Virus record (IMG/VR): IMGVR_UViG_3300000062_000001
Location: 1 to 64,000 of that record
From: a virus
Length of the DNA: 64,000 nt
Direction: 5' to 3' (one strand)
The notes under the pieces are model-generated. The model had not been told where the DNA came from, made no database searches, and saw only the letters and a list, made by a program, of their open reading frames with translations. Positions 5,334-63,238 of this stretch are shown here, piece after piece (the first letter of the stretch is position 1; each line of letters opens with the position of its first letter). Both the position numbers and the translations under genes were made by a program.

Positions 5334-5345
5334 AATATATGTTTT

Positions 5346-28113: not shown

Positions 28114-29317
28114 CATTTTGTTATCTTAGAGGCTCTTTATCCCCTAATTCTACATTTTCATTTTGTTATATATGTAGTTCAGACTATATCATCACTATAA
28201 AATATAGTGTCTCACGCTCGTGTTTTTTCATCTTATATTTCTACTTAGATTACTAAATTAGTCGTTGAACCTTTTTATTGTTTCCAATAAACTTGGCTGC
28301 TGATTATCTTCTTCAAGACTTTCCAGCAATTCATGAGATTTTACAAGGACTTTAACACTTGTAAATTAATTTTATAATACATAGATTCTAATAATTCTGG
28401 AAAAATAATTGAAACAAATTTTTTAAAATCTTTTATTGATAAATAAATAGAATTATTATTAAATTTAGTAAAAGTAAGATTGAATCTTTCTTTCATAAAA
28501 TTTATAAGTAATTTTATTTCTAAATCATTAAAACAGCATGTAGCTATTGATACTGAATTAGATTGTTTTGAACCATCATCCATAAAAAAATATGTTAATG
28601 ATACTTCATCAAAATTATCTAAATATTCTTTAGTTATACATTTCTTGTTATTAAGATATAATTGATTATAAATTTTTAAATAATATGGATTTGCAGAACA
28701 ATTTATCCAATATCCTTCATAATATATTCCATTTCTTGAATCTGGTGTATTCCTTTTTCTATATTTAAATTTTGCACCCAATGATTTTAAAATTTCATAT
28801 TTATGATAAGCATATTCTTGTTGTTTTATTCCATGTCCACAAACAAAATCTGGATTTATACAGTTTTTACCTATTCTAAGAGAACTATCTCCTAATAAAG
28901 TTCCATATAACATACTTTTTTGATAAGGAGTAGCCTCTATCATTTTAGCAATATTATAATTTTCTCTATAAAAAGAGTTCTTTATTCTCGCTGCATATAT
29001 CCCACTTTCTTTAACATTAAACTTTTCTGCTATTTCTTTATCCGTTAAACCTTTTTCAACTAACTGTTTCAATTCTGTAATTGGGATTTTTCTCCCTAAA
29101 CCTTGTTTATAATTGGATGGAAAATTATTTTTCTTTCTCCAAGTTCTTATAGATTCATGGTGTTTACCAATTTCTTTTCCTATACGAGCATCACTATACC
29201 CTTTTTGATATAACTCGTTAATTATTAATTCTTTTTCTATTGTATTCATTTTACTTTTATTTAAGTATTTTTACAAATATAAGTAAAATATTTTTAATTT
29301 ACAAATTTTTTTACCCT
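28114..29317 (-). mobile_element. group I intron in the helicase gene
   Basis: Core elements, sense strand: P gaattgctggaaag (28319-28332), Q aatcagcagcc (28295-28305), R ggttcaacgactaa (28258-28271), S gatgatatagtct (28181-28193). P1 pairs exon aaggaU with GUCCUU (28345-28350), and P10 pairs uuaaa with exon 2 uuuaa. The spliced frame is continuous (292 + 77 codons). Confidence 0.8.
28341..29249 (-). CDS. intron-encoded LAGLIDADG homing endonuclease with N-terminal HTH repeats
   Basis: LLGDSSLRIG and FFMDDGSKQ dodecapeptide motifs, plus two HTH-like repeats (YSDARIGKEIG and LTDKEIAEKFN). Confidence 0.8.
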   Translation of the reverse strand: MNTIEKELIINELYQKGYSDARIGKEIGKHHESIRTWRKKNNFPSNYKQGLGRKIPITELKQLVEKGLTDKEIAEKFNVKESGIYAARIKNSFYRENYNIAKMIEATPYQKSMLYGTLLGDSSLRIGKNCINPDFVCGHGIKQQEYAYHKYEILKSLGAKFKYRKRNTPDSRNGIYYEGYWINCSANPYYLKIYNQLYLNNKKCITKEYLDNFDEVSLTYFFMDDGSKQSNSVSIATCCFNDLEIKLLINFMKERFNLTFTKFNNNSIYLSIKDFKKFVSIIFPELLESMYYKINLQVLKSL

Positions 29318-35286: not shown

Positions 35287-35320
35287 AATATGATGTTTTT
35301 AATTATTTAATTATTTAAAG

Positions 35321-35688
35321 TGGAGGTGCAGAGATTCGAACTCTGGTCTTACAATATTTCTTTATTAAAACTTTTACATGTTTATTCAGTTTATTAACTG
35401 ACAAAATAGGGCTGAATGGTTTTAACATTCAACTTCCACCAATTAGTTTTTATTTAGAGATAAACTAACAAACTGTCTCCTGCTCCAATTTTTATATCTT
35501 AGGTATGATATTACTATTTCCTGTTTCTAAGCATAGATGCTCAACTACTATGCAGCTAATCTATAAGCTGTCTGAGTAGAAGGAGTTAAATTAATAACCT
35601 TGCCTTTTATAGTTTACTATTTTAAGGTATAGTTACCTTTACATGATTTTAATACTTACTCTATTATAATCTAACCCATACCACCCCC
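35321..35688 (-). ncRNA. ssrA: tmRNA (ssrA-like transfer-messenger RNA)
   Basis: The 5' GGGGGUG pairs with the 3' CACCUCC, including a G3:U70 wobble (the alanine identity pair). T-arm CAGAG-UUCGAAU-CUCUG preceded by GAC. P2 pairing UUAUAAUA/UAUUGUAA. Candidate resume codon GGC at RNA position 85 (35604). Tag frame GKVINLTPSTQTAYRLAA followed by TAG TAG (35545-35550), which sits inside hairpin GCATAG...CTATGC. 368 nt, CCA not encoded. Confidence 0.8.
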
Positions 35689-41193: not shown

Positions 41194-41265
41194 GTAGCGG
41201 AGGTTAGAATCGAACTAACTACTTCAAGATTATGAGACTTGATTTCTACCATTGAATTACTCCGC
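41194..41265 (-). tRNA. tRNA with anticodon CAU (Met, or Ile2 if lysidine-modified)
   Basis: Hand-folded cloverleaf. T-arm GUUAG-UUCGAUU-CUAAC, anticodon loop CUCAUAA, D-loop with GG, six acceptor pairs plus a U:U at 1:72. Confidence 0.7.
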
Positions 41266-41472
41266 ATTATTAAAAAGGAACTAACATACTTAAGTAATGT
41301 TGCTCTTCTACCAAAAAATGAAATTTTTATGCTAGTTCCTTAATGTGTGTAAATTCAAAGGAGAGTTAAATCACATTCCTCCTCTTCATTTATATCATCT
41401 TCGTAATGACGATTTACCAATGCTGTTTCTCTAAAATAACTATCCATTGATAGAATTCTTTCGATAGTTTTT

Positions 41473-41986: not shown

Positions 41987-42025
41987 ATATACCTACTATC
42001 ATTGTTTATAAAATAGTAGGTATAT
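41987..42025 (-). terminator. 12-bp perfect hairpin
   Basis: atatacctacta (41987-41998) pairs with tagtaggtatat (42014-42025), after the stop of 42046..42525. Confidence 0.5.
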
Positions 42026-42045
42026 TAATTAAGTTTTACATAAAT

Positions 42046-42525
42046 TCATTTGTAATATTGTATCTTAATATTAGTACCTTTGATACTGATATTATTTACA
42101 GTTAATTCTCCTGATTCTACAATTACTTGAACAATGTTTGTATTTTTAGATACATTAACCATTGTTTTAGTAGTGAGATCAATTTGATGAGCTTCTGGCA
42201 TGGTATTTTCATCCCAGCGTGGGCTGTTTTTTCTACCTGGTGCAATAGCAGTAGTCATACTATGATTGACAAATAACATTGATTTGTACTTGGTTATAAA
42301 TATTTTATTGTTATAGTAAACCATTTCTATACTTGCTGCACTTCTGGTTATTCCAGTTTGTTCCTGAATTTTAGCTGCTGCTATTTCAAAAGCATATCTT
42401 AAATTATTAGGACACCTTTTGATGGTCTCTGCTAATATTTCAAATTCGGCTGTAGAGTATTGTGGACCTCTTTTAGGTCTTTTTTCCTCTCGTTCCTGGG
42501 AGTAATCAAAATTAATTGTTTCCAT
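42046..42525 (-). CDS. hypothetical protein
   Basis: 159-aa ORF ending in TGA. Confidence 0.5.
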   Translation of the reverse strand: METINFDYSQEREEKRPKRGPQYSTAEFEILAETIKRCPNNLRYAFEIAAAKIQEQTGITRSAASIEMVYYNNKIFITKYKSMLFVNHSMTTAIAPGRKNSPRWDENTMPEAHQIDLTTKTMVNVSKNTNIVQVIVESGELTVNNISIKGTNIKIQYYK

Positions 42526-43363: not shown

Positions 43364-43764
43364 TGGTAGAAAGTTTATTAATGAGACTTAAAAATTATGG
43401 TAGGGCCCTATGACCCCAACCCAAGAACTAGGAAGGGGGGGTTTAATGGACAATGTCATCCTTACACACCCCCAACTGTTTTTTTAAATTATTCTCTTCA
43501 TTACTCACTCCAATTTTTAAAAATTTATACATATCCCATCCCCCAAGTCCTTGAATATAAAAAGGTAGGGGGCTTGTTTTTAAATCCCAAAAAGAGAGGG
43601 GAGGAGAAGCAGAAAAAGTCTGGTTGCAAATTAATCCTGTAACTATACTTAGAGTATAGATTTAAGCTCCAAAATAAACTGTATTGAGGTCAAAAAAGGT
43701 CAGATTATGAGCCACAATCATAAGAATGAAATGTTAATAAAAGTTAAAGTTTTCATAGTATAAA

Positions 43765-43805
43765 ATAGTTAACCCACTATAGTAGTTATAGTTAACCTCT
43801 AGTAG
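43765..43805. repeat. tandem imperfect direct repeat ATAGTTAACC..CT.TAGTAG in the divergent intergenic region
   Basis: atagttaacccactatagtag (43765-43785) and atagttaacctctagtag (43788-43805). Related atagtt words recur at 43838-43855. Confidence 0.4.
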
Positions 43806-43851
43806 ATATAAAACTTTTTATAATATATATATATTAAAATAGTTTAAATAG

Positions 43852-43882
43852 TTGCATATTTCAATAATTATACATACCTTTG
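43852..43882 (+). promoter_or_regulatory. candidate Bacteroidota-type promoter (-33 TTG, -7 TAnnTTTG)
   Basis: TTG at 43852-43854, a 20-nt spacer, then TACCTTTG at 43875-43882. It lies about 520 nt upstream of the first plus-strand ORF. Confidence 0.3.
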
Positions 43883-44404
43883 CATTGTCTATATTTTGAT
43901 GGAGAAATATCTCCCCCTTTAATTAGATTTGCAAAAGGGGTAGAAGTTGGGTTGTAACTCCTGTATGATGATTACAGAAATAGGGAGTGAGTTGTCCCCA
44001 ATAAGACACAAATTGCTTAGATATAAACTGGTTCTCTCACCAATCCATTGAGAAAAGGTACAGGTAAAGAGAGCTAGGGGTATAAACAGGGGGTATGAAT
44101 ATGTATAGGGACCTGAACAAGACAAGAACTATACTGAGCTTCATATCTATATAAGACGGGCCAGGGAAATTCTAAGTTAAATTGGGCATAGAGAAATCTA
44201 TTTATATCTGGAAATCATCTAAAGATATAACACTATAGCAGTCATAATGCTATTAAATAGTGGCTTAGCTCCAAACTTTTTTAATTAAAGGCTTGGTCTT
44301 AGGAAAATCTATATCCTTTTGTGAAGGATTAAAACCCTAATATATGTATTGAGTATTAAAGAATTAAAAGAATATTTTGATTAAAATTAAATATAGAGAT
44401 TAAA

Positions 44405-44719
44405 ATGAGTAAAGAGAGATTAAAAAAGTCTAGGGAGAAGTTAACTTCTATAGATGAAAGTAGAAAAGATTTAAGAGTTATAGTAGAAATGAATATATCT
44501 TCTACAGAGATTAAAGGTATGTTAGTTGATGAAGAAGATAAGGGTAATATATTTGAGTTTGAGATTGGATATCACTATTATGAAAATTATGATGAAGATG
44601 GTAAGTTGATAGCTGCTGGTATAACTAATTCATATGGATCAAACTTGAATGAAATTAATCAAGCTGATCCAAGATTAAATGAAATTATATTAAGGACTTT
44701 AGAGGTTAAATATGAGTAA
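44405..44719 (+). CDS. hypothetical protein
   Basis: 104-aa ORF, first gene of the plus-strand block, with no TGA. Confidence 0.55.
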   Translation: MSKERLKKSREKLTSIDESRKDLRVIVEMNISSTEIKGMLVDEEDKGNIFEFEIGYHYYENYDEDGKLIAAGITNSYGSNLNEINQADPRLNEIILRTLEVKYE

Positions 44720-44966
44720 TACTAAAAAGGAATTTAGTAAAGGATTAACTGTATTCTTAATTGCTTTTGGTATAGCATGTATAGTTGCTAGTTATGTATT
44801 AGCTTTTATGAATAATACTTCAGTTAATGAGGGTGTAACTATAGCTGTAATCAGTCAGATATTAGTGACACAAGTGTCCTATTTTACTTATCAATATAAG
44901 TTAAAGGATTCAAGGAATAGGAATGGTGTAGATGAATATGGTGTACCATATGATACAGGTAGTTAA
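44712..44966 (+). CDS. small two-helix membrane protein
   Basis: 84-aa ORF with two hydrophobic helices. Confidence 0.5.
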   Translation: MSNTKKEFSKGLTVFLIAFGIACIVASYVLAFMNNTSVNEGVTIAVISQILVTQVSYFTYQYKLKDSRNRNGVDEYGVPYDTGS

Positions 44967-45057
44967 AATAATTTATAGTATTTAACATTATTTAACTAAA
45001 AATATTTGGTAGATATAAAAATTATATTTACTTTTGTATCAAATAAAAATTAAAAGT

Positions 45058-45258
45058 ATGAGTAGAATTAAGAATTGGTTTAAAGAAGAATTGGGGTTAA
45101 AGATTATAGTGGTGTTAAGTGCAATTGGTTTAGTAACTTTGATTACTTTGTTTGTTACTTCTGATACTAATGATAATACTAAGAAAACTAGTATAGAGGT
45201 TGTAGAGACAGTTGAGGTAACAGAAACAGTTGCTGTTGATAGTTTGATTGTGAATTAA
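45058..45258 (+). CDS. small membrane-anchored protein
   Basis: ATG at 45058, in frame with the track ORF that starts at TTG 45034. One TM helix. Confidence 0.45.
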   Translation: MSRIKNWFKEELGLKIIVVLSAIGLVTLITLFVTSDTNDNTKKTSIEVVETVEVTETVAVDSLIVN

Positions 45259-45304
45259 AATTATTTGTTATAAGGACTGGGGGATACCTGGTCCTTTAAA
45301 TTAT

Positions 45305-45375
45305 GGGTTTGTGTTGTAAGAGTAGCAAATTAGTCTTCAAAACTAAGAGTCAGGGAGCGTAGCCTTGCAAACCCG
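45305..45375 (+). tRNA. opal suppressor tRNA, anticodon UCA (reads UGA; Trp identity inferred)
   Basis: 71-nt cloverleaf. Acceptor GGGUUUG/CAAACCC, D-stem UUGU/GCAA, anticodon stem UUAGU/ACUAA, loop CU-UCA-AA (anticodon 45337-45339), 4-nt variable loop, T-stem CAGGG/CCUUG, discriminator G. The T-loop AGCGUAG is non-canonical. Confidence 0.75.
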
Positions 45376-45400: not shown

Positions 45401-46000
45401 TTGAAAAATAATGCTATTTGGAGAGAACAGATTTTAGAGTTAAGGAATCAAGGTAAATCCTATAGGATGATCACTAAGATTCTTAAATGTTCATCATCTA
45501 CAGTTGCTTATAACTGTAATAAAGAGGTTGAAGAGAAAGTCAAGAGTAGAATGGCTTATAGAAGGGGTGATAACAAATTGACTTGGAAACTAAAACTACA
45601 AAAGCAAGTAAGTAGTTTTAATTATAGAAAGGCTGGGAAAGGACACGGGGAATATAACAAGGATTGGAATAAAAAATTAAGGACATCATATTCTACATTT
45701 ATGAATAGGGGAAGTAAAAATACTAGTAAGGTTTCATACAAAGCAGTTATAGAAAAATTTGGTTTAAGGACCAGATGTTATTTAACAGGTAAGAAAATTG
45801 ATTTAACTAAGGATGATTATTCTTTTGATCATATAGTTCCTGTAGCTAAAGGTGGAGAAAATACATTGGATAACTTAGGTATTACTATACCTATAGTTAA
45901 TAGATCTAAGACAGATTTAACTAAAGATGAATATATAGAGTTGTGTAAAAAAATATTAAAGTATAATGGATATTCAGTTACAAAGAGAAAGAATAGTTAA
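45401..46000 (+). CDS. HNH endonuclease with N-terminal HTH
   Basis: FDHIVPVAKGGENTLDNLGITIPIVNRSK HNH core. TTG start, immediately downstream of the suppressor tRNA. Confidence 0.7.
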   Translation: MKNNAIWREQILELRNQGKSYRMITKILKCSSSTVAYNCNKEVEEKVKSRMAYRRGDNKLTWKLKLQKQVSSFNYRKAGKGHGEYNKDWNKKLRTSYSTFMNRGSKNTSKVSYKAVIEKFGLRTRCYLTGKKIDLTKDDYSFDHIVPVAKGGENTLDNLGITIPIVNRSKTDLTKDEYIELCKKILKYNGYSVTKRKNS

Positions 46001-46587: not shown

Positions 46588-46869
46588 ATGAAGGAAAGAA
46601 TTTATGTTGTATGGCATATTAATAATGGAAAACATTACAATAAAACTTATAAAGAAGCTGAATGGAATGGTTGTGCTTACTGAGTTACAGCTTCTAATAG
46701 GGGAATAGCTAAAGATAGAGCAATACAACATTTCTTTATAGATAACTGTCCATTAGATTATATCAATACTTTTTCTAATATGACCGTGGAGGAATTTTTT
46801 GATAAGAAAAATTTAAAAGTGTCTTATATAAAAAAATATGATTATTTAAATTATGGATTAGATATTTAA
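46588..46869 (+). CDS. hypothetical protein, first gene containing an in-frame TGA
   Basis: ATG 46588, TGA 46681-46683 in frame, TAA 46867-46869. Reads ...EAEWNGCAY-W-VTASNRGIAKDR... Confidence 0.5.
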
Positions 46870-46881
46870 AAAAGTTGATAA

Positions 46882-46953
46882 GGTTGTTTAGTATAACGGA
46901 TAATATATTTCTCTTCTAAAGAAATGATGGTGGTTCGATTCCATCAACAACTA
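46882..46953 (+). tRNA. tRNA-Arg (anticodon UCU)
   Basis: 72-nt cloverleaf. Acceptor GGUUGUU/AACAACU, anticodon stem UUUCU/AGAAA, loop CU-UCU-AA, T-arm GGUGG-UUCGAUU-CCAUC. Confidence 0.8.
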
Positions 46954-46968
46954 CAAAATAAATTAATT

Positions 46969-47586: not shown

Positions 47587-47952
47587 ATGGATAAATATAA
47601 ATTGTGTGAAGAATATCAAGATGCTTCTATAGACAGTGAATATAATAATATACCTACTTACTGATGTAACTTTTGTAAGTCTTTAGCAATAGGATATTTT
47701 AGTAGTTCAATTGCTGGGGCCCCTACAAATTATTGTATGCACTGTGGGAGTACAGATGTTATTAAGGGGGATATATTTGAATGGGTTAAAATAACTAAAC
47801 CAAAGAAGAGAATATTTAAAAATTTAGTAGAGTACGAAGAATACAAAGCTAGAGTAACAAAGCAAAGAAATTACTTGGCTAAACGTCAGAGTGAAGCTAT
47901 AAGTAAAGAGATTAAAGAAGAGTTAGAATCTTTATATGTTTGAAAAGTATAA
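47587..47952 (+). CDS. zinc-ribbon protein, 121 aa with 2 in-frame TGA
   Basis: ATG 47587, with TGA at 47662 and 47941 in frame. W-CNFC...CMHCG cysteine pairs. Track ORF 47737..47943 is an internal piece. Confidence 0.5.
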
Positions 47953-49420: not shown

Positions 49421-49663
49421 GTGGAAAACATAATAGAAGGAGTAGAAGATATATATTTGATGCCCCCTAAGTTTTATTTAGAGGTAGAAGATGTGATAGA
49501 TATTGAAAATATAATGCTTAGGGCTGCATTAAGACATGTAAAAGGTTTACCAGATACATTAGAGAGTGATAGAATAGAAGCAGAAATAGCAGAGTATAAA
49601 AAGGCTGTGATGCAAAATGAAACTTACATAAATGAATTTTTAGATGAAATTAATAGAATTTAA
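49421..49663 (+). CDS. hypothetical protein
   Basis: 80-aa acidic ORF with a GTG start. Confidence 0.45.
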   Translation: MENIIEGVEDIYLMPPKFYLEVEDVIDIENIMLRAALRHVKGLPDTLESDRIEAEIAEYKKAVMQNETYINEFLDEINRI

Positions 49664-50171
49664 AAACAATGAACTGACTATTGCAGATGAAGCTTATCAT
49701 ATCAGAGTATTCAAGACTCTTTGGGACAGAGATATTACCAAGGATAAGTCTAGAGCTTTGAGTACTTTTGGGTTTATGTACTTCTATCATCATCCCAATA
49801 GTGATTATAATTATATTATTGATGATGATGAAAAGATACAAGCCATACAAGAAGGGCTTGGAATTGATAACTTAAAATTTTTACAGGATAAAAATTATTT
49901 AAAAGCTGTAGAAGTTTACAAGAAAATGGTGGTTACTACTTCTAGTAAAATACTTGAAACTAACAGAAATAGGATGGAAAAACTTGGTAAATTTCTTGAC
50001 GATTTAGTAATAACAGATGAGAATATGAATAAATACACTAAAGCTATATCAGATATTAATAAATTAGGTGTAGAAATAGCTATGGCTGAGAAAGAGATAT
50101 TCAGGGATATAGAGGAACAGACTGCTAAGGTAAGAGGCAAAGTTGAATTAACAGTAGGAGATATGCTCTAA
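49644..50171 (+). CDS. hypothetical protein
   Basis: 175-aa ORF upstream of terL. A small-terminase role is possible by position only. Confidence 0.5.
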   Translation: MKLIEFKNNELTIADEAYHIRVFKTLWDRDITKDKSRALSTFGFMYFYHHPNSDYNYIIDDDEKIQAIQEGLGIDNLKFLQDKNYLKAVEVYKKMVVTTSSKILETNRNRMEKLGKFLDDLVITDENMNKYTKAISDINKLGVEIAMAEKEIFRDIEEQTAKVRGKVELTVGDML

Positions 50172-50428: not shown

Positions 50429-50543
50429 TAACATGGGTATCTGAGGTTTAAGATGTCCTACATGTAATAGTACAGAAGTTACTGAATTAGAGCACAACAC
50501 TTATATATGTTTATGTTGTAATAAGATATGGAAGAAATTATAA
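50421..50543 (+). CDS. 40-aa zinc-ribbon peptide with 1 in-frame TGA
   Basis: MNSNMGI-W-GLRCPTCNSTEVTELEHNTYICLCCNKIWKKL, with two CxxC pairs. Confidence 0.35.
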
Positions 50544-52861
50544 AAACAAATAGTTATCAAACTAAGATAACTCAAGAATTGTTAGATAGTTTAGGAAAGG
50601 AGGTTCAAGAGGATCTCCTTTTTTATATTAATAATGTACCTTTTATACAGAGATTAATCTCTCCTTCTAGGAAGTATGCTAAAGACTTACAGAGAGATGA
50701 ACGGGGAAGAGTTTTTGTAGACATATCTAATCCTCACATATTAGAGAATATGGATTACTTTAGGGAATCTGCTATTCATTTTCAGAAATATGGGTGTTAT
50801 ACAAAACTTAAAATTAATACCAGTCCTAAATCTGAATATATGAAATGATTTAATAGAGAGTTAGACAGATGTTGAAATGGTATGATTAGAGAAAGTGATG
50901 GGGAATGAATACCTGGAGATTTATATTGGTATCTTAATTATACTATAATGAAACAAACTATAGATAAGAAATTAAAAGATGGTAGAATTATAGAGACTAG
51001 AACTGTGGATATTCCTAAAATGTGAGAAGGTGTTTATTGAAGATTTCATTATTTATATCAATGTAGATCTAGTAAAGCACATGGAGCAGAGGTGTCAAGT
51101 CGTGGAAAATCAAAAAGTTATGTTTTAGCTGCCATGTTATCAAAAATGATTTCTTTGGGTATAGATAATACTTTGTCTAAAAATAGAGCATCTTTAGCTG
51201 TAGCATCTAATAAGGATTATCTAACAAAAAGAGGTCAAGGAGTTCTTGAAAAATTTGAAGATAATATGGATTTTATTACTAAAAATACTCAATTTCCTTC
51301 TAATTTTTCTCAGGCCTCTTTATCTACTATGCAGTGAACTTGTGGTTGAGAGGATCAAGAAAAAATTAAAAGGGGCCCTCAAAATACATTAGCTGGTATA
51401 GCTATAGCTGATGATCCAGATAAATCTCGTGGGTCAAGGGTGGATTTACTTGTAGGGGATGAATTTGGGTGCTTTCCAAACTTTAGTGATTGGTGGGGGG
51501 CATCTATGCCTTCTGTACAAGACGGGGAAAAAATATTTGGATTATTATATGTTACGGGTACAGGAGGAACTGAGGGCACAGATTTTAGTGGTGCATTATC
51601 AATGATTTATTCTCCAGCTTCAAGAAATGTTTTGGGGGTTCCAAATGTGTATGATAGTGGTAGTAAGGGATTAAAAAACACAGTATTCTTTTTTCCTGCT
51701 TATGTTAACTACAATCCTTATTATGATGAAAACGGTGTGTCAGATGTAATAGGGGCTATGGTCAGTGAATTAAAACAACGCTATATTATTAAATATGAAT
51801 CTAATGATCCACTAGAACTTACTAAAAGGAAGGCTGAATTTGCATTTACTTTAACAGATGCAATAATGCGTAGAGATGGGACTATCTATCCAGTTGCTGA
51901 TTTAAATGATAGAATATTTGAACTTGATAATAATCCTGATATACTTAATAGAATGTATCAGGGTAGGCTTAATATGAATGATGGTGCAGTTTCATTTGTG
52001 CCAGATTTAGATTGTAAAGCTATACAAGAATTTCCACACACTAATAATAAAATGGAAGGTTCTGTATATATTAAAAATATGCCCGAAAAGAATAGTGATG
52101 GTAAAGTTCCTTGAGGTAGATATATTGCTGGGTTAGATCCTATAGAAATTGATGGAGAAGCACAAAGTCTATCTTTATTATCCGTATATGTGTTAGATTT
52201 ATGAACAGATGACATTGTAGCAGAATATACAGGAAGATATTTACATACAGAAGATGCCTTTGAAATAGCTAGAAGATTGCTTTTATTTTATAATGCAGAG
52301 TGTTTATATGAAAATAATAAGAAGGGATTTTATTCATATATGTTAAAATATAATTCATTAATGTTGTTGTCTACTACTCTGGATTATTTAAAAGATAAGA
52401 ATTTAGCTAAAGAAAGTTATGGAAACTCTTCATATGGATTTACTGCTACCGCTCCTATAAAGAGTTTAATCAGAAGACATGTTAGGGATTATTTACTAAA
52501 ACCCCATGAATTGTTTGTACAGACTACTGAGGGTGAAGAGACACAAGTTACTGTAAGTAACATTAAAAGAATTTGTTTTAGAGCGTTATTAAAGGAATTG
52601 AGTATGTGAAATGCTGATGGCAACTTTGATAGACATGATGCTTTGGGTGCTTTAATGTTGCTAAGAGAAGCTAAATTAATTTATTACCAAGGCGGAACAG
52701 GGCAGGATAGAACCAATGACAGGGAGTATTTAGGTAATGATAATTTCTTTACAGTTAACTATGATGAAAGAATTAAAAGAGAAACTGATGTTGTAAGGAT
52801 AATGAGGGAGATTGATAAGAAAAACGGTTGAAATACTTATTTAAATACTTCTGAAGTATAA
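50528..52861 (+). CDS. terL: terminase large subunit, 777 aa with 11 in-frame TGA
   Basis: Five track ORFs (50528, 51092, 51440, 52277, 52643) share one frame and are separated only by TGA. Walker A SSRGKSKS, Walker B VDLLVGDEFG, nuclease motif YIAGLDPIE. Confidence 0.8.
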
Positions 52862-52941: not shown

Positions 52942-55338
52942 ATGGAATATTTTAATGGTTTACCACCTCAAAAACTCTCCTATAGGAAAAAGAATAGGGA
53001 GTGGAGGGTTAAATGTGTGGATTGAGCAGACAGGAATTATCTGTTACATAATTCATACACTAGAAAGTCTTATAAGAATAAGGTTATAAATTATAATCTT
53101 ATAAATGGCATCCTTGACATGGAAGATGTTATGGCTGTCCTTAACCCTAATAATATAGTATCTTCATTATCTCCTGAAAGAATTCAGCATTACCCTATTA
53201 TGAACTCTAAACTAAATATTCTTAGGGGAGAAGAGTGGAATAGAAGATTTGATTACAGAGTAACTGTAACAAATCCTAATGCTATTACAGAGATACAAAG
53301 GGAAAAAATGGATTCTTTAATACAGGATTTACAATCTTGAATTACAGCAGATGCTCAAACTGAGGAAGATGCTCAGAGAGAGCTTGAGAAAATATCAGAT
53401 TATTATAAATTTACTTGAAAAGATATAAGGGAAGTAAGAGCTAGTTACTTCTTAAGACATTACAGCCGTGAATTAGATTTTGATTTAAAGTTTAATCATG
53501 GTTTTATGGATGCTATGATTTGTGGAGAAGAGATATATCAATGTGATATACAGGGTGGAGAACCTACTTTTGAAAAGATAAATCCTAAAAAGATTAAAGT
53601 TATTAGAAGTGGATTCAGTAATAAGATAGAAGATGCAGATATGGTTCTTTTGTGGGACTATTGATCTCCTGGTAAAATACAAGATGCGTTTTATGATGTG
53701 CTATCTCCTAAAGATGTGAAAGAGATAGAAGAAATGGCTGCTAATTTTGTATCTGATTCCATGGAAAACTTTGATGAAACAAGGAATTTTACTCTTATAG
53801 ATCCAGCAGGTGAATCTTATGGTGAGGGGGCTATTTTAGAGGGGAGATTAGCAATGTTTGGCGCCCCAATGTATGGTTTTAGTAACTATGTGGATAATCT
53901 TGGCAACATTAGAATTTTAAGATTATATTGAAAATCCTATAGAAGAATAAAGAAGGTTAAATCCTATCATCCTGAAACTGGGGAAGAAGAGTATAATTTC
54001 TACCCTGAAGATTATATTTTGAATAAAGATATGGGTGAAGAGGAGACTATATTATATATTAATGAAGCTTGGGAAGGTACTAAAATTGGTAAGGATAAGT
54101 ATGTAAATATGAGGCCCAGAATAGTTCAGTATAATAGATTGTCAAGTCCTTCGAGATGTCATTTTGGTATTGTAGGATCAGTTTATAATTTAAATGAATC
54201 TACCCCATACTCTTTAGTTGATACAATGAAATGGTTTAATTATTTATATGATGTTATTAGTGATAACTTACTGAAGTTAATCTCTACTAACTGAGGTAAA
54301 ATAATTAAGATGGATTTAGCAACTGTACCACAAGGTTGAGAAGTTGATAAATGAATGTATTATGCCAAGATAAATCATTTAATGGTTACTGACAGTTTCA
54401 AGGAAGGTAATAAAGGGGCTGCTATGGGAAAATTGGCAGGACTTATGAATAACCAATCCTCTGGAGTAGTAGATGCTGACCAAGGTAATTCTATTCAATA
54501 TTATATGAATCTTCTGGAATGAATTAAGCAGTCCATGTCTGAGATGGTTGGTATAACCAGACAAAGAGAGGGGGCTATATCTAACAGAGAAACTGTTGGA
54601 GGAGTTGAAAGGTCTGTATTACAATCCAGTCATATTACTGAGTATTTGTTCATGACTCATGAAAATGTTAAGAAGAGAGCTCTTGAATGTTTCATAGAAA
54701 CGGCTAAAGCTGCCATGAAAGGTAAGTCTTTAAAGTTTCAATATATTCTATCAGATGGTACTGCAAAAATTGTAGATATAGACGGGGATGAATTTTGTGA
54801 GAATGATTATGGTATTACAGTAGAAAATTCTAAATTTACTCAGGACCTTATAACAAAATTGGAAGGCCTTGCTCAAGCAATGGTACAAAATCAAATGATG
54901 AGTGCCAGTAGTTTAATCAAGATCTTTTCTGATTCTTCTACAGCTGAAATTATGAGAACTATTCAAGAGGATGAAAGGAATTTACAAGAAAGACAATCTG
55001 AACAACAAGAAGCTCAGAACCAGTTAATGCAACAAGAAATGGAAATGAAATCTGCTGTTGAAAATAGAAGACTTGATGTTCAGGAACAAGCTAATATAAG
55101 AGATAATGAAACTAAATTAATTATAGCTGGTTTATCTCAACAAAGTAATGAAGAGGGTTTAACAGAAGAACAACCCTTTGATTTACAAAAGAAGCAAGAC
55201 TTAGAAGAGAAAATTAGACAATTTGATGCTAAATTAAGTTTAGATAGGGAGAAATTTAATTTTGATAAAGACACAACTAAAGAAGAGTTGAAGTTAAAAA
55301 ATAAACAGATTAATAAACAATCTAACATGAAAAAATAA
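52942..55338 (+). CDS. portal protein, 798 aa with 9 in-frame TGA
   Basis: ATG 52942. Track ORFs 53119, 53698, 54019 and 54535 are in the same frame, joined through TGA only. The size, the position after terL and the C-terminal Q/E-rich coiled coil fit a portal. Confidence 0.7.
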
Positions 55339-56423
55339 TGGCAAGTAATAAATTAGAATTTGTACGTTCACATACAGCCCCTCCTACAGTTGAGGGCGCT
55401 GGCTGGGTGGATTTAAATTTCACTCCTCCAGTTGTGAAACAATGGACAGCCCAGGGCTGGGTTCCTCTAGGAAGTGGTGGTGTTCCAGAGCCCTGTCGTG
55501 TTCCTCCTGGAACTGCTGATGGGCAAGTACCTGTTTGGGATCAAACAACGCAAAAATATGTACCTGAAATTCTTTCAATACCAGGTAGTGAAATCTTTCC
55601 TCCTGGAAGTATATATAATTATTCTTCAAATTTAGCTTGATTACCTTCTAATATGGATGTGTCGGGAATGTCAGCTATGGATGTACTTACCCAAATTCTT
55701 TTTGGTTTTAATAATCCTGCTTTCACTTCTTTTAGTCTCTCTGGTAATACTACTTTAGAAGTAGGAGCAAGTATCCCAGCAACTAAAACTTTTACTTGGG
55801 CTGCTACTTATATGGCTAATATTAAACCTAACAGTACAATAATTAGAAATATAACTGATGCTGTCACTTTATTTTCAAATATTACTATAGGTAATCCTTC
55901 TGGTACAGGAACCTCAGGATCTTATTCTGGATCTTCTGCTGTACTTACAAAAAACAGTCCTACATCTGTAGTATTTAGAATAAGCCAAGAAAACACAAGA
56001 GATGTGGTATTTACAAGGGATTATTCAGTAAATTGGTTGTGGCCTATTTATTGAGGCGCTTGAGAGCAATATAATAATGCATGAAGCGCTGGTGGTGGTA
56101 CAGCGTCAAGTATTGTACCTACTTCTTCTGATATTATAGATGATAATAAGGTTTTATCAAATGTTGTCAATGGTCAAGTTTTTAATATGCCTGATGTTAC
56201 AGGTGGGGCTATACGATTTGTAGCTATTCCAGAGGAGCTCCCACAACTTAGAATGATGGTAGATAATAATAACACTATGCCTATAGTATTGAATGGGGGC
56301 TATGACCCAACTTCCCCCATGACTGTACCAATAACTAATAGTTTTGGACTTTCTCATAATTACAAAATTTATTGGACAGCAAATGTTTTAAATGGGTCTG
56401 TTCCTATGAGATTGGTAGTTTAA
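55338..56423 (+). CDS. tail/structural protein, 361 aa with 4 in-frame TGA
   Basis: Track ORFs 55338, 55653 and 56187 share one frame. GC-richer Pro/Gly-rich N-terminus. Shares the DVLT.IL.G...FTW domain with the next gene. Confidence 0.6.
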
Positions 56424-56458
56424 TTTATAATATTTCTTTAACTTTTAATTAAATTTTT

Positions 56459-57865
56459 ATGGCAATTGATTTTAATCAAACAGTAAAATTAACTGGGGGT
56501 ATTTCCCCCACAAGTCCACTTGATACTTATGCTTCACACTTTGAAGATTTTGGTTATGGTGGTTACAGAACAGTAGCAGATATAGCTGAAAGAGACGCTA
56601 TAACTCCAGCTAGAAGAAAAGGTGGCATGTTAGTTAATGTGCTTAGTGATGGTAAAAAATATGAACTTGATGGGGATTTAACTACTTGAACTGAGTTAAT
56701 TCTAAGTGGAAATACAGATTTTAAAACTGAATTAGATTTAACATATGCAAACGCCGCTGCTGGGGTTTATAATATAAGTCAACTTCTTCTTAATGGGGTC
56801 GTTTATTACCCTGCAACGTTCACTACAGCAGAATGGACTGAGGTAAGAAATAAATTAAGAGGTCAAATGATCTCAATGCGCTTTCTTGATTCTGATCCGA
56901 CAGCAGAGAACCCTATTCGTATTAGTCTTGGGTCCTCGGATGTAGCTGTGACACTTCTTAATAATATTCCACTATTGACTAGTGATATTCTTGTTAGTCC
57001 AGTTGTATTTTATAGTTGTCATATTCAGACATCTTATGCTAGTTTTATAATGTTAAAAACAGCTCCTATTACAGGTGGTGGGGATATATTTCCATCAACA
57101 CCTGCAACTACTAATTTTACAGTAGGAGATTTTCCAGCTGGTAGTACAATAGGAGATAGGTCTTTAATAGATGTGTTAACAGACATATTAGTTGGTTATC
57201 CTCAACCCACCCTGACAAGTCTTAACTTCACAGGTAGAGTTGCTACTATTGAAGTAGGTTCAGTTATTGCTGCTAATAGAAACTTTACATGGTCTATGGC
57301 CAATGCAGATAATATGGATTCTGCGAGCATAAGTATTTCTGGTCCTGGTGGAGTAGTTCAGGGAACGGGTATTACTGGAGTAAATGGAGCTAACACTTAC
57401 CTCTCCACAACTCCTGCAATCAATACTACAGATACTCCTGCAACTTATTCATTTGGTATCTCAGGTACAAATACCAAAGGTGCCACTATAACAGGTTCGG
57501 GCGTAAATGTAGCAACACAATATAGATTTGGATATGCAGCTTTGGCTACTGATGGTGGTTTAGTTACAGCAACTGATATTAATGATTTATTATCTGCAAC
57601 AGGAACTCTTAGAGCTACTCCTGTAACTAATATAAGTTTCCCAGCAAATCCAGTCAGTCCTTATAAATACTTTGTGGCTCCTGCATCTTTTCCATTGACC
57701 ACAGATAACTTTAAAGAGGGCAGTGCTTCAGGCTTCCCATATGCTATGGTTAAAGTAGCTGATAATGTCCCTGTAGTTAGAAATGCAAACGCTACAGTGA
57801 ATTACCAAGTTTGAAGATCTGCTAATGCAGTGAATGGGGCGACAGTGCTCTATGTAGTAGCTTAA
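56459..57865 (+). CDS. tail fibre protein, 468 aa with 2 in-frame TGA
   Basis: Track ORFs 56459 and 56867 share one frame. The N-terminal module VKLTGGISPT...GYGGYRTVADIAERDAITPARRKGGML is paralogous to the N-terminus of 57922. Confidence 0.6.
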
Positions 57866-57921
57866 TAATAATCTATAATAAAGGGGATTAATTTCCCCTT
57901 TATTTCAATTAAAATAATAAT

Positions 57922-58578
57922 ATGGCAGATATAATAGGAACAGTAAAATTAACAGCTCAAATATCTCCTACTGACACTTTAGACAGTTTTCCTACCCATT
58001 CAGAAATTTGAGGGCAGGGTGGATATGGTTCTGTTACTGATATAGCTGAATTACATAATATAACTCCTCAACGTAGGAAAGAGGGGATGTTACGATATGT
58101 CCTTACTGAAGATACAACCTATCAGTTAAAGGGGGGCATAGACAACATAAACTGGGTGGAAGCCTCTTCTACAGGAGGTGGTGGTGTAGATCCTGTACCA
58201 ATAGGAACATTTATGTTCGGTATATTGGATATAAGTATGGCTCTGCCAGCTGGACTAATTAGGTGTGATGATGGTACAGTTTATAATAAAATAGATTTTC
58301 CTGAATTAGTTACTTTAATAGAGAATGAATCTTTCTTTCATAGTATAGATGCAAACACATTTGAATTTGTGAATATTCTAGATGAAGAGACTTGAATTAA
58401 GGCTAAAAGAATAAAAATTGGTGGTTCTGGTAGTGATATTGATGTAGTACAATCTACAGGACAATCCACAGAAGATGTGATGTCTCAAAAGGCTGTTACT
58501 GATGAATTAGATAAAGTAGAGCAATTAATAGGTGATATAAATACTGTGTTGGATTATGTTAATGGTTTAATAATATAG
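57922..58578 (+). CDS. tail fibre protein paralogue, 218 aa with 2 in-frame TGA
   Basis: ATG 57922. N-terminal module VKLTAQISPT...W-GQGGYGSVTDIAELHNITPQRRKEGML, with a C-terminal coiled-coil-like end. Confidence 0.6.
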
Positions 58579-58580
58579 AT

Positions 58581-59339
58581 ATGGCAACAGCGGATAAATT
58601 AGAATACTTAATAGTTGGTGTTGAGGATGCATGATTAGCTTGTCAGGAATTAGGAGCCACTTTACCTCCAATTAATCCTTTAACTGGTGGCAGAGATATA
58701 GACCTCTTGGGGGCTACTATAAGAAGCACTAATACAAGACCAGATTGATTACCCCCTGGCTATATGCAATTATTGTATTTAGAAAGTACAAGATCACAAC
58801 ATGTGGACACTGATATATTAAGTACTAATGGAGTGCATCAAATAGTATTAGATGTATTAATACCTTCTACAGTAACATCGAATACATCGATAGTTGGTTC
58901 AAGGGGTGATTCTCCTACAAGAAGATTTGGTAATTTATATATGACAGGAAGTCCAATACATATAGGTGCTTACGTTGGTCAATCAAGTAATATTATGGGT
59001 TATACTCCAACTATAGATGAAAGATTTACACTTGATTATATAGTAGATGAGCCTAATCAACATTTTGAAATGTCTATAAATGGTATATCAATTGGTAACG
59101 ATACATATAATGGTAGTGCTATTACAGGTTATCCACTGTTTATATTTGGCGCGAATTTAAATGGTAATGTTACTGAAAGAAGTGCTACCAGATTATATAG
59201 TTGTAAAATGTATATAGATGGTATATTGGTAAGAGATTTATGACCAGTATTAAATGATCAGAATGAGCCTTGTTTGTATGATAAAATAAGTTTAAGGACA
59301 TTTCTTCCCATTGGATCTGGTATAAAATTTGGATTTTAA
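58581..59339 (+). CDS. structural (tail-associated) protein, 252 aa with 3 in-frame TGA
   Basis: ATG 58581, with track ORF 58764..59243 as the internal piece. Confidence 0.55.
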
Positions 59340-59359
59340 CTATAATACAATAATATAAT

Positions 59360-61819
59360 ATGGCAAATAAAATAACATATAAAAGTAGAGTAGAGGACTA
59401 TCTTACATTCTCAGGTTTTCCATTAGTTGGGACCAAGGGAATTATATACATAGACAAAGAGCATACTAAAAGTTATTTGTGAAATGGAACAGAATATGTA
59501 AGTGATAGTGGATCAGGAGAAGACCTTGCAGACAGAGTAGAGGCTCTTGAGGAAGTAACTAAGATCCCTATGAGACAGGGAATAGAATATTCAGGGACTT
59601 ATAGTATATATGTACAACTTTATGATGAAGTCAATCCAGATGATCCAGGGGATATTTGAACCCCTGAAGGAAATGATAGCAACCCCGACCCAACACAATA
59701 TGATACTGCATTAAGAACTCTTTATGGAGTAGTTGAATTTTTAAGAAAAAGGGATTTCTTTGGTGCTGCTGTACGAGTAAATTTTTCTGAAGGAGATTAT
59801 ACTAATACTTTTGTAACAGGTACTTCACCTACTTGGTCTTTTGATACAAGTGCGCTTGCTGGCTCTAATATAACGACATTAAATCTACTACCACAGGTTA
59901 TATCTTGAACTAGTGCTGAAAGTACTATTATACAAGGGGCTAGGTCTACATTACAGTCTTTAACCTTGTCTTACAGATACTTGACTGTAAAAAGAGCAAC
60001 TACTACAGGAAATGTGGATGTGTCAAATGGAAGTAGGCTAACATTATCAAATTGTATTATATTATCTGGACCAAACCTTAATATAAGTGGAAGTAGTTCA
60101 TCAATAGAAGTAAATGGATGTAGGTTTTATAGTACTAACCCAATTGTGGTTAATGGTGGAACACTTCTTTTTGTAGGTGCGGCTTCTCAACTTTTAGCTA
60201 CCCCTTATACTCTAGCATCTGGAAGGGCTTTTATAGAATTAACAGATGGCGTCTTGGATATAGGTAATATTGGTTTTAATCCTACTAGTATTTCAAGAGT
60301 TACAGGAAATAAAGTAAACGCACTTGGTAATTCTAGTATTTATGCAACAGGGGATCCTACAGATTTGAATTTACTTCTTAGTAAAATACCTGGAAGTACA
60401 TTAGGTAATTTAGGTTTTGGAAGTTCATTTTTTAATCCCACTGTTATTAATGGATTTTCACAAGATGATACAGACCCTGCGAATCCTTTATTGTTATGAA
60501 ACGGATTACCTGTTACTGGAAATATAGGCTCAGCAGAAATAGCAACAACAACAACAACAGGAATAGTTAAAATAGGAAATGGTTTAGATATAAATATAGA
60601 AGGAAATCTTAGTTCTAAATGATGTCAAGATGAAGAACTTTTATTCATTTCGCAGGATTCAAGAACTCGTAATACATCTGCTTTATATAATAAAAATATA
60701 TACATTCCAATATCTAATACTACTACTCTTGAGATATTTGATACTGTTACAAATACTACAAGAGAGAAAGTGTTATTACAAAACCCTTCTTCTTTAGAAA
60801 CTTGTGTTATTGGGAATGGTAATTTATATATACCAAATCAAATTTCTTCCCCTAGGTCAATTGAGATATTCAATTTAACACAAGAAACATCTCGGGTAGT
60901 TAATGTTCCCACAATGCCTATTAATTTAAAGTGTTCATTAATATATGATGATAATTTATATCTTTTAGGAGATCGAACTCATTTAACAATATTTAATCTT
61001 ACTTCTGAAACTAGTAGAGATGTAACTTATTCAGCTGGTGGACATCGCTCTTTCTGTAAAATTATTGGAACTAAATTATATGCATTTGAAACAGTTAACC
61101 CAAGTGTGGATATTTTTGATCTTGTAACAGAGACAACAGAAACTGTAGCATTGCAGGGATCGGGCACTATTAAAACAGGAGATGCTTATGAGGATAAGTT
61201 TTATATTGTTCGGAACAATAGTACTCAAATAGAAATATTTGATATAAATACTAAAACTTCTAGACTTTTACCAATACTAGTAAGTAGTCAATATAATTCT
61301 GTAGTAGTATACAAAGGTAAATTATATGTGTACCCTGTATTTGTAGTAAATGGGTTACAAATAATTGATTTACATTCTGAGACTAAGAAGACAATACCAA
61401 TAACAGGAACTTTAACAGCTAATACAGTACAAGCATTAAATAATAAGATATACTCTTTTGGGACAAATGTGAATGTGTACACATTAGAAGGAGCCTTTTT
61501 TACAGAGGACACTAATTCAGTTAAATCTACAGGAAATGGAATGCCTGGTAGTCCTTTAAAGATTGAGTTGGCCCCTCATGTATTTAAGCCTATGATTGTT
61601 GATTTGACAAGTCAATTAGATGGTGTGTTGGAAACTTTTGTAATACCTTCTTTTATTACTTCTGATATGTATAAAGCTTTGTGATATCATGGTAGTAGAT
61701 TAAAAGAGAATGGTCAGTATACTATAAATTATATTAATCATGAATTAACTACTTTAATGCCTAATGCACCCGTGGCATCTGCTGGTGCAGGGCTTGAACT
61801 AGAAGTTTGAACATGGTAA
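59360..61819 (+). CDS. large tail fibre/receptor-binding protein, 819 aa with 7 in-frame TGA
   Basis: Track ORFs 59966 and 60770 share the frame of ATG 59360. Beta-helix-like region, a TTTTTGIVKIGNGL motif, then six ~47-aa repeats of the type IEIFD..T.TSR.V. Confidence 0.65.
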
Positions 61820-61837
61820 TCTACTAAATCATATAAT

Positions 61838-62200
61838 ATGTTAGAATCATTATTAACATCCTTGGTTCCTGCTGTAATATTATCTGTAGTCACTTTTATG
61901 ACCACTAAAAGAAAATATCAAGCTGAATCTAAGGGACTAGAAAAAGTAAATGATGATCTATCTCAGGAAATATACAGAAAGCTTCTTGATGACGTAAATA
62001 ATAGAATTGAGAAGCTTACTACTGAGATGAGATTAAATGAACAACATTATTTGGCCAGAGAGGTTGAATATAAAAACACTATTAAAGCAGCGAATGAAAA
62101 AATCAATGCTTTAGAGAGTAAAATAAACAGACTTACAAGACACGTATGTTTAGTATCCACATGTGCAGATAGAGTATATTTTGATGAAATGTCTGATTAG
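61838..62200 (+). CDS. membrane-anchored coiled-coil protein (spanin- or holin-like, by position)
   Basis: N-terminal TM helix LVPAVILSVVTFM followed by a coiled coil. First gene of the putative lysis cassette. Confidence 0.45.
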   Translation: MLESLLTSLVPAVILSVVTFMTTKRKYQAESKGLEKVNDDLSQEIYRKLLDDVNNRIEKLTTEMRLNEQHYLAREVEYKNTIKAANEKINALESKINRLTRHVCLVSTCADRVYFDEMSD

Positions 62201-62202
62201 TT

Positions 62203-62823
62203 ATGAAAAGTATAGGAACATATATCATTCTATTTGCTACAGTGTGAGCAATAGGATGTACAGCTTACTTTAGAAATAAAGTTAAAAAGAACACTGCTCA
62301 AATAGAAATTTTAGTAAATAATAATAAGGCTTATGAGCTGGAAAATTTGAATTTATCATCAGAAAAAGGGATTTACAAAATGACTATTGATGAACTTAGT
62401 CAGAGTAGAGATAGTATTGTTAATCTCCTTGACCAAACAAGAAAAGAACTTGGTATCAAAAACAATGAACTTAACTTAGCTCTATCTTTTAAAACTGTTA
62501 TAAAAGAAACTAGAGTTGATACTGTGACTTTTATGGTAAGAGACTCTATTTCTACATGTGATTTTGATCAATTAATAGTATTTAATGATTACACAAGATT
62601 AAATATATCTTTAAGAAATAATATAGTTAAAGCTGATTTGGACTTGTCTGACAGATATCAATTGTTTGACTACTCTACTAGAGAGTGAAAGGAGCCTAAA
62701 TTTATGAAAAGACTTATTAAATTTAAATGGGGTAAATATACTATAGATAAAGTTGAGCTTGTTAATGACAACGATCTAAATAAGATATTAGATTTAAAAG
62801 TAATTAAAATAATAGATAAATAG
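62203..62823 (+). CDS. putative lipoprotein (outer spanin-like, by position), 206 aa with 2 in-frame TGA
   Basis: Signal peptide IILFATV-W-AIGC has a lipobox, and one TGA lies inside the signal peptide. Track ORF 62347..62688 is internal. Confidence 0.45.
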
Positions 62824-62824
62824 T

Positions 62825-63238
62825 ATGCAACTTAGTAAGAATTTTTCTTTATCTGAAATGGTTTATTCAGAAGTGGCAAAAAAGAAAGGTATAGATAATA
62901 CTCCTTCTCCACAAATAATTGATAATTTAAAAAAACTTTGTGAAGAATGTTTACAACCAGTAAGAGATAAACTAAAGAAACCTATTACTATTAATAGTGG
63001 TTATAGGTGCTCTGCCCTTAATAAAGCTGTTGGGGGGGCTAGTAGTAGTCAACATGTTTTGGGAGAAGCTGTAGACATTACTGTGGGTACTAAAACTGCG
63101 AATGAAGACTTGTTTACTTTAATAGTAAAAGATAAATCTATAACATTTGATCAACTTATAGATGAGAGTAATTATAGTTGATTGCATTTATCATACAAAA
63201 ACAAGAATAATAGACGACAAGTATTACATTTAAAATAA
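62825..63238 (+). CDS. peptidase M15 family endolysin, 137 aa with 1 in-frame TGA
   Basis: SGYRCSALNKAVGGASSSQHVLGEAVDI (the SGYR...GG..SQH..G.A.D zinc-peptidase signature). Continues through TGA 63179 to W-LHLSYKNKNNRRQVLHLK. Confidence 0.8.

Follow-up and report, generated by a model that had tools for sequence, protein, structure and literature searches.

The 64,000-nucleotide (nt) stretch of viral DNA analysed here (positions 1 to 64,000 of IMG/VR record IMGVR_UViG_3300000062_000001; hereafter the window) carries a tRNA gene at 45305-45375 on the plus strand with the anticodon UCA, which reads UGA. The gene is identified by ARAGORN at relaxed settings, by the Rfam model RF00005, by a covariance model built from its relatives (R1, described below) and by covariation. 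The 5′ half of the RNA reads GGGUUUG-UG-UUGU-AAGAGUA-GCAA-A-UUAGU-CUUCAAA-ACUAA and the 3′ half GAGU-CAGGG-AGCGUAG-CCUUG-CAAACCC-G, with no CCA encoded. ARAGORN draws these 71 nt as a cloverleaf with an acceptor stem of 7 bp, a D-stem of 4 bp, and anticodon and T-stems of 5 bp each. The 7-nt anticodon loop (C-U-UCA-A-A) contains U33 and the purine A37 expected of a tRNA, and U8, A14, and the G53-C61 pair are all present. A preliminary description of this DNA, made from the sequence alone, had proposed a 71-nt UCA cloverleaf at this position, with discriminator G73, an AGCGUAG T-loop, and a D-loop lacking GG. The loops and the discriminator (the G at 45375) are as described, and the cloverleaf is upheld by the model scores (43.4 bits with RF00005 and 64.3 bits with R1) and by covariation.

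The tRNA gene is intergenic, lying in the 142-nt gap between the open reading frame (ORF) at 45034-45258 and an HNH endonuclease gene at 45401-46000. Inspection of the sequence between the stop codon of that ORF and the tRNA shows a plus-strand hairpin, AAGGAC...GTCCTT, followed by TTTAAATT (45272-45296). Going by its sequence, it might serve in termination or in RNA processing; a terminator scan did not call it. ARAGORN labels the tRNA "SeC" because the anticodon alone determines the label. Selenocysteine tRNAs have an 8+5 or 9+4 acceptor/T helix, a long variable arm, and a 6-bp D-stem. The 7+5 helix, 4-nt variable region, and 4-bp D-stem of the window tRNA rule out this assignment.

Routine annotation overlooks the gene. 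Run with default settings on the 64-kb window, ARAGORN reports only a tRNA-Met (41194-41266, minus strand) and a tRNA-Arg(UCU) (46882-46954, plus strand); the UCA tRNA is recovered at a 95% threshold or in mitochondrial mode. Rfam at gathering thresholds likewise returns the tRNA-Met, the tRNA-Arg, and a transfer-messenger RNA (tmRNA) from the window and misses the UCA tRNA, and a search of a 301-nt slice at E ≤ 10 gives no tRNA match. When cmscan is run with lax filters on 91 nt, the element aligns end to end with RF00005 (model positions 1-71) at 43.4 bits (E = 9.5e-9), well above the gathering threshold of 29. Given this score, the misses reflect filter and heuristic losses from the atypical T-loop, not a poor fit to the model. 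The warning in the preliminary description that standard scanners might pass over the tRNA is thus borne out for default ARAGORN and filtered cmscan, although the underlying score is good. Default ARAGORN and filtered Rfam searches can both fail to report a suppressor tRNA. As a chance control, 60 dinucleotide-shuffled windows produced three relaxed-threshold ARAGORN calls, none with the anticodon tca.

Comparison with related phages places the element in a conserved family of genuine tRNAs. The closest phage found, IMG/VR UViG_3300010167_000860 (locus L002), has a terminase large subunit (TerL) 62% identical to that of the window. At L002:4604-4675, 5.3 kb ahead of this TerL, lies a sub-threshold tRNA(tca) that scores 46.6 bits with Rfam. 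A metagenome scan with the pattern CTTCAAA-N(9-12)-GGGAGCRTAGCC, which leaves the acceptor, D-, and anticodon stems unconstrained, returned 40 stretches. The AT-rich crAss-like ones among them (L036, L037, L068, and L071) fold as the same tRNA and pass Rfam at 38-45 bits; the L068 and L071 tRNAs are identical, L041 is the L002 contig again, and the remaining ~30 matches do not fold as tRNA. The family therefore comprises five distinct sequences, the window tRNA and four distinct relatives (L002, L036, L037, and L068/L071). Other searches added no members. Applied to 185,579 bacterial and archaeal genomes as a negative control, the same (T-arm) pattern yielded 31 matches, none folding as a family member. 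In IMG/VR, neither exact matching nor a D-arm pattern returned anything. Among 50,697 GenBank phages, BLASTN found no counterpart of the 3-kb locus, and for the tRNA by itself the sole alignment was an 18-nt one attributable to chance (E = 7). Homologues of the ORF at 49644-50171 exist, on contigs that end before reaching the tRNA position.

The stems of the family have diverged extensively while remaining paired. Acceptor stems take the forms GGGUUUG/CAAACCC, GGGUUUA/UAAGCCC, ACCCUCU/AGAGGGU, GGGCAUG/CAUGCCC, and ACCCGCU/AGCGGGU, anticodon stems the forms UUAGU/ACUAA, GAAGA/UCUUC, and CUAGU/ACUAG, and D-stems the forms UUGU/GCAA, GUAU/AUAU, GUUU/AAAC, and GUUU/AGAC. In the four relatives, with the window excluded, all 84 stem cells are standard pairs, and 10 of the 21 pairs have changed on both sides; none of 500 shuffles reaches the covariation score, and sliding the pairing partners by 1-3 columns lowers pairing to 36-51%. 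RNAalifold, unaided, arrives at the same cloverleaf. We built the R1 covariance model from the four relatives without the window sequence. With filters off, R1 finds 45305-45375 at 64.3 bits (E = 8e-18) as the sole strong match in the window; the next, at 27 bits, is the phage's own tRNA-Arg. The UCA anticodon at positions 34-36, complementary to UGA, is invariant across the family, and every member has G73.

What sets this family apart is its elbow. Canonical tRNAs carry U54-U55-C56-R57-A58 in the T-loop together with G18-G19 in the D-loop, joined by G19-C56 and G18-U55 contacts and a U54-A58 reverse-Hoogsteen pair. All five distinct family members instead share the T-loop A54-G55-C56-R57-U58-A59-G60 (AGCRUAG) and a D-loop with A18-G19 (AAUCAGAA, AGUCAGAA, or AAGAGUA, the last in the window). 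From the canonical set of G18, G19, U54, U55, C56, and A58 only G19 and C56 are kept, along with the G53-C61 pair. The G19-C56 pair is thereby retained, both partners of the G18/U55 contact are changed, to A18/G55, and U54-A58 is replaced by A54/U58. The paired nature of these changes suggests that the remodelled T- and D-loops form an alternative elbow that would still be folded. The tRNA-Arg and tRNA-Met of the same phage keep ordinary UUCGAUU-type loops.

Sister tRNA(UCA) genes with canonical loops also occur, in the crAss-like relatives L003 and L004 and on other viral contigs (L116, L118, and L119/L120), and score 35-43 bits with R1. They carry G73, except for L116 with discriminator A, and the anticodon loop CUUCAAA, except for L003 and L004 with CUUCAAC. 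The L003 and L004 tRNAs, which default ARAGORN finds, have the T-loop UUCGAAA or UUCAAAU and the D-loop AACGGUA. Those of L118 and L119/L120 share the T-stem CAGGG/CCUUG with the window but have the T-loop UUCGAGU and the D-loop AAUGGUA; this T-stem was required by the scan pattern that returned L116 and L118-L120. Enterobacterial tRNA-Trp has the T-loop UUCGAGU as well, as verified against annotated records. Since the sisters are canonical UCA tRNAs and some of them share UUCGAGU with tRNA-Trp, the odd-elbow family seems, on sequence grounds, to have branched off from Trp-type UCA suppressors.

The phage that encodes this tRNA is a crAss-like phage of ~106 kb, Steigviridae-like, with a GC content of 29%. 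Its source contig, ENA ERZ27245258 k141_1692681 (106,449 bp), is circularly permuted relative to the window. The TerL gene (50528-52861, plus strand, 11 in-frame TGA codons; found with tblastn) encodes a protein ~50% identical to those of the Steigviridae crAss-like phages cr108_1, crAss001, and IAS virus. It is followed by a portal gene (52942-55338, plus strand, 9 in-frame TGA codons; phrog_6547, E = 2e-123), and the Pfam domains Crass_capsid, CrAss_Ring_3_4, and crAss_AuxCP lie just beyond the end of the window. Further late genes at 55338-63238 on the plus strand, assigned with PHROG and Pfam and read in genetic code 4, encode tail- and fibre-like proteins and a lysis-region ORF; the Peptidase_M15 endolysin at 62825-63238 (plus strand; phrog_894, E = 1e-41; Pfam Peptidase_M15_3) has a TGA at codon 119. 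The opposite strand carries a replication and nucleotide-metabolism block (1927-44144, minus) with Pfam matches to ribonucleotide reductase, GHKL ATPase, helicase, primase, DNA polymerase A, RNA ligase, and Thy1.

These two blocks use different codes. The 63 leftward genes contain 154 TGG codons and no internal TGA, and the seven rightward ORFs at 43.4-46.6 kb contain 8 TGG and no TGA. The 23 rightward genes from 46.6 kb onward, together with 10-1926, contain 39 TGG and 53 TGA codons. Reading TGA as sense raises coding coverage at 52-60 kb from 0.62-0.69 to 0.98-0.99 and leaves it unchanged at 8-36 kb. Opposite the 20 TGA codons of TerL and portal, five standard-code relatives have Trp at 65 of 95 aligned residues, Tyr or Phe at 21, and Gly, Arg, or Cys at none; in portal, 7 of the 9 TGA positions face Trp in four or five of the five relatives. 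By these alignments and codon counts, TGA is a Trp sense codon in the late genes only, and not in the replication genes or upstream of the tRNA. A host that itself uses code 4 is unlikely: none of the 63 leftward genes has TGA for Trp, and some of them terminate at TGA, as expected of a replication module written for a standard-code cell. The seven apparent leftward TGA codons mostly fall 1-6 codons before the next TAA or TAG, and ~5 are genuine TGA stops with such a back-up. Genes that end in this way, with TAA or TAG 1-6 codons further on, lie at 3409-3855, 18106-18348, 18336-19508, and 42025-42525 (minus strand). With back-up stops at this distance, read-through by a suppressor would add only a short tail.

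Several other features accompany the two blocks. The tmRNA gene at 35318-35688 (minus strand) scores 57.3 bits with RF00023 against a cut-off of 47; ARAGORN reports it at relaxed settings only and leaves its tag unidentified. By eye, the reading frame ends ...GCT TAT AGA TTA GCT GCA TAG TAG, an ssrA-like ...AYRLAA followed by two TAG stops. Speculatively, in a phage that suppresses TGA, such a tmRNA might serve to rescue ribosomes that have run past the UGA stops of host genes. An ORF at 28341-29249 (minus strand) among the replication genes, with an N-terminal helix-turn-helix (HTH) and a LAGLIDADG_2 match (Pfam, E = 1e-26), is another mobile endonuclease. Between the divergent blocks, 43400-44400 is ~1 kb of mostly non-coding DNA with G- and C-rich runs that are unusual at 29% GC, and may be a control or origin region. 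The major capsid gene (Crass_capsid) is called in four pieces at L112:4564-9009 (equivalent to ~64.6-69.1 kb in window coordinates), with HTH and LAGLIDADG_2 ORFs separating the pieces, a pattern that hints at inserted introns or homing endonucleases besides TGA recoding.

The presence and position of the UCA tRNA follow recoding across relatives. We anchored loci on TerL and defined recoded relatives by in-frame TGA codons in both TerL and portal. All five recoded relatives with at least 3 kb of upstream sequence (L002, L003, L004, L012, and L017) have a tRNA(tca) on the strand of TerL, 3.0-5.4 kb ahead of it; none of the unrecoded relatives (L001, L008-L010, and L073-L076) does. The preliminary description had placed the tRNA just upstream of the first recoded gene; a tRNA(UCA) at the head of the rightward block, a few kb ahead of TerL, is present in every recoded relative that can be checked. 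As in the window, the genes between tRNA and TerL are nearly free of TGA in L002, L003, and L017. In L037 a gene with 3 TGA codons lies directly downstream of the tRNA. No further tRNA(UCA) turned up in the window or in the adjoining 15.5 kb (L111 and L112), which together cover 79.5 of 106.3 kb. Two peculiarities of the relatives are recorded here. The tRNA(UCA) at L012:3997-4090 has 94 nt, G73, and an extended variable arm that gives it the class II shape of Ser, Leu, and Tyr tRNAs, and the suppressor of this lineage may differ in origin or amino-acid identity. At L002:10001-13221, TerL is preceded by a 290-aa ORF whose first ~60 residues match window TerL 1-79, and the main TerL match restarts at 10870, which suggests that the terminase gene of L002 is split or interrupted by an intron.

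Around the tRNA itself, three small ORFs free of TGA form the head of the rightward block (44405-44719, 44712-44966, and 45034-45258, plus strand, from the ORF tables), matching the three TGA-free genes that had been noted upstream. Downstream, also as originally described, comes the HNH gene, 25 nt beyond the tRNA (45401-46000, plus strand; phrog_6050, E = 1.3e-24); it has no TGA and encodes an N-terminal HTH with a weak Pfam match to HTH_38. An HNH homologue with 46% identity at L036:42-626 contains 3 TGA codons, lacks TGG, and stops 11 nt short of the L036 tRNA on its upstream side, so that HNH genes abut odd-elbow tRNAs on opposite sides, downstream in the window and upstream in L036. The HNH protein looks like a free-standing homing endonuclease associated with a conserved tRNA gene. 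The first ORF with an in-frame TGA is a candidate 93-aa gene in the ORF tables (46588-46869, plus strand; codon 32, at 46681). This TGA is where the preliminary description had placed it, but 1.3 kb rather than 1.2 kb downstream of the tRNA and in an ORF for which no homologue was found in PHROG or in the relatives' loci searched. Paralogy with a neighbouring ORF, which would have backed this TGA, was considered and dropped, as the similarity is not significant. The first gene with comparatively supported TGA codons lies at 47587-47952 (plus strand; codons 26 and 119). Codon 26 is TGA in the L002 homologue (5097-5477, 41% identity) too, which places the first homologue-backed in-frame TGA at ~47662.

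Taken together, these observations point to a functional phage opal-suppressor tRNA, most likely a derivative of tRNA-Trp(UCA), that decodes the UGA codons of the late genes; we put the probability of this reading at about 80%. The tRNA would be transcribed with the rightward block, from its head. Host enzymes would process its 5′ and 3′ ends and, as no CCA is encoded, add the CCA. Host tryptophanyl-tRNA synthetase (TrpRS) would then charge it with Trp by way of G73 and C35-A36, and the charged tRNA would compete with RF2 at UGA, decoding 53 or more in-frame UGA codons in the packaging, structural, and lysis genes. Replication genes would need no suppressor. With UGA confined to late genes, full-length terminase, portal, tail proteins, and endolysin would depend on prior accumulation of the tRNA.

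Trp identity is suggested by several features of the RNA. G73 is the bacterial Trp discriminator, bacterial TrpRS recognizes the anticodon C34 C35 A36, and UCA-type tRNA-Trp is charged in code-4 bacteria. The window anticodon, U34 C35 A36, keeps two of the three TrpRS anticodon determinants. Among ~30 reference tRNAs scored with R1, Salmonella tRNA-Trp ranks best at 38.4 bits, which lends modest extra support. TGA suppressors are tryptophanylated in E. coli, as cited by Borges et al. (10.1101/2021.08.26.457843). At the end of the acceptor stem, G1-C72 occurs in the window, L002, and L037, and A1-U72 in L036 and L068/L071.

A number of points weigh against this interpretation. Three positions that rank among the most conserved in tRNA carry A54, G55, and U58 instead, and an elbow of this kind could impair folding, handling by RNase P or the CCA enzyme, or function on the ribosome. 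The minimum-energy fold of the single sequence is not a cloverleaf (z = -1.6), although we judge such folds uninformative for an AT-rich tRNA. With U34, one of the anticodon determinants for TrpRS is lost, the window has G1-C72 where E. coli tRNA-Trp and the canonical relatives have A1-U72, and Arg (34 bits) and Gly (32 bits) tRNAs score only 4-6 bits below tRNA-Trp with R1. In L036, TGA already occurs in the HNH gene upstream of the tRNA, and placement of the tRNA before the first recoded gene is therefore usual but not universal. No phage TrpRS or RF1 is found among the ten largest early proteins, and the remaining 26.8 kb of the genome could hold another suppressor. Finally, we infer expression, processing, charging with Trp by the host, competition with RF2, and the role in timing from the genome.

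The best-surviving alternative, with a probability that we consider small, takes the element to be a decaying or non-functional relic, with UGA read by another phage tRNA, by wobble of host tRNA-Trp(CCA) under impaired RF2, or by a host suppressor, an option raised by Yutin 2021 (PMC7886860). The loss of the near-universal U54, U55, G18, and A58, the ARAGORN score below threshold, and the 26.8 kb outside the scanned part would fit a relic. The same odd loops are nonetheless kept in five distinct sequences whose stems have diverged with full compensation, a pattern that indicates purifying selection on the structure, not decay. In addition, this is the sole UCA tRNA in the 79.5 kb covered, and a UCA tRNA stands at the same place in every checkable recoded relative.

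Slightly less probable still is the view that the tRNA works and reads UGA but carries some amino acid besides Trp, whether Gly (the code 25 assignment), Arg, Cys, or Gln by mischarging. U34, which weakens recognition by TrpRS, G1-C72 in the window copy, and the closeness of Arg(UCU) and Gly(UCC) tRNAs to tRNA-Trp under R1 leave some room for it, but they are outweighed by the alignments, in which TGA overwhelmingly faces Trp, otherwise Tyr or Phe, and never Gly, Arg, or Cys. A tRNA-Gly(UCA) of the code 25 type was rejected since no Gly occurs among the 95 residues aligned to TGA. G73 and the Trp-like canonical sisters also favour Trp, and for phages of standard-code hosts only TGA-to-Trp reassignment has been reported (10.1101/2021.08.26.457843).

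That related HNH genes adjoin the tRNA in two lineages, and that the suppressor alone among the tRNAs of this phage has the odd elbow, could mean that the element is tRNA-like without decoding, serving as a homing or recognition site for the HNH endonuclease or as a decoy against host defences that target tRNAs. We think this improbable: the tRNAs of L002, L037, and L071 have no adjacent HNH gene, the anticodon loop is CUUCAAA throughout the family, TGA recoding and the tRNA go together, and a free-standing HNH gene beside a conserved gene is ordinary homing, compatible with decoding. A chance cloverleaf in AT-rich intergenic DNA, for which the non-cloverleaf minimum-energy fold and the silence of default scanners might speak, is refuted by compensatory changes, RNAalifold, covariance-model E-values of ~1e-8 to 1e-17, and the absence of tca calls in the 60 shuffles.

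The opal-suppressor reading leaves a separate question about the elbow. Its conservation in at least five diverged phages, with tRNA-Arg and tRNA-Met remaining canonical, raises the idea of an adaptation specific to the suppressor, which we hold only tentatively and think doubtful. Possible purposes are escape from host T-loop modification, escape from tRNA-targeting defence, or tuning of the competition with RF2. If functional, the A54-G55-U58/A18 elbow would be of interest to tRNA structural biologists and to designers of orthogonal tRNAs. Among the papers covered by a full-text search, nothing relevant on non-canonical T-loops in phage suppressor tRNAs was found.

Missing suppressors are named as an open gap in both papers on phage recoding (PMC7886860; 10.1101/2021.08.26.457843). 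Yutin 2021 (PMC7886860) described TGA-to-Trp recoding of late genes with putative suppressor tRNAs in beta, delta, and zeta crAss-like phages and proposed that the missing ones might be "extremely divergent" tRNAs. The window element is not of that kind, as its underlying tRNA model score is good. Borges et al. (10.1101/2021.08.26.457843), using tRNAscan-SE, detected a TGA suppressor in just 35% of the code-4 phages, guessed that non-canonical tRNAs had been missed, and proposed that recoding times late-gene expression and lysis. The window family is a concrete example of such a missed non-canonical suppressor, and the window a worked, comparatively supported case of a crAss-like phage that reads its late genes in another code. 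Elbow variants might also, though we hold this just as tentatively as the idea of an adaptation, explain part of the ~65% of TGA-recoded phages with no detected suppressor. R1 or filter-free covariance searches could be applied to recoded phages that appear to lack one.

The locus is a further member of the published kind of suppressor. It shares with the crAss-like suppressors of Yutin 2021 the viral order, the Beta/Steigviridae-like group, recoding of late genes only, TGA read as Trp, and a phage tRNA(UCA); it differs in its AGCRUAG T-loop, in a D-loop without GG, in escaping default ARAGORN and filtered Rfam, and in having no BLAST-detectable copy in the GenBank phages searched. With the code-4 phages of Borges et al. 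it has in common standard-code replication, recoded structural and lysis genes including endolysin, low GC (29%), and a suppressor in the standard-code segment upstream of the recoded genes, but the TrpRS/RF1 "code change module" was not found here among the ten largest early proteins. Compared with bacterial tRNA-Trp (trpT and the code-4 UCA form), the window tRNA has the same G73, CUNCAAA loop, U8, GUUY-type D-stem, and 30-40 G-C and 31-39 U-A pairs, and gives the best R1 reference score; it differs from it in U34 instead of C34, G1-C72, a 4-nt variable region, and A18/A54/G55/U58. The canonical phage tRNA(UCA) of L003 and L004 has the same anticodon, G73, and position upstream of TerL and keeps the canonical T- and D-loops, of which the window family is a derived form. 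The recoding arrangement itself was thus already known, and what is new here is the conserved remodelled elbow.

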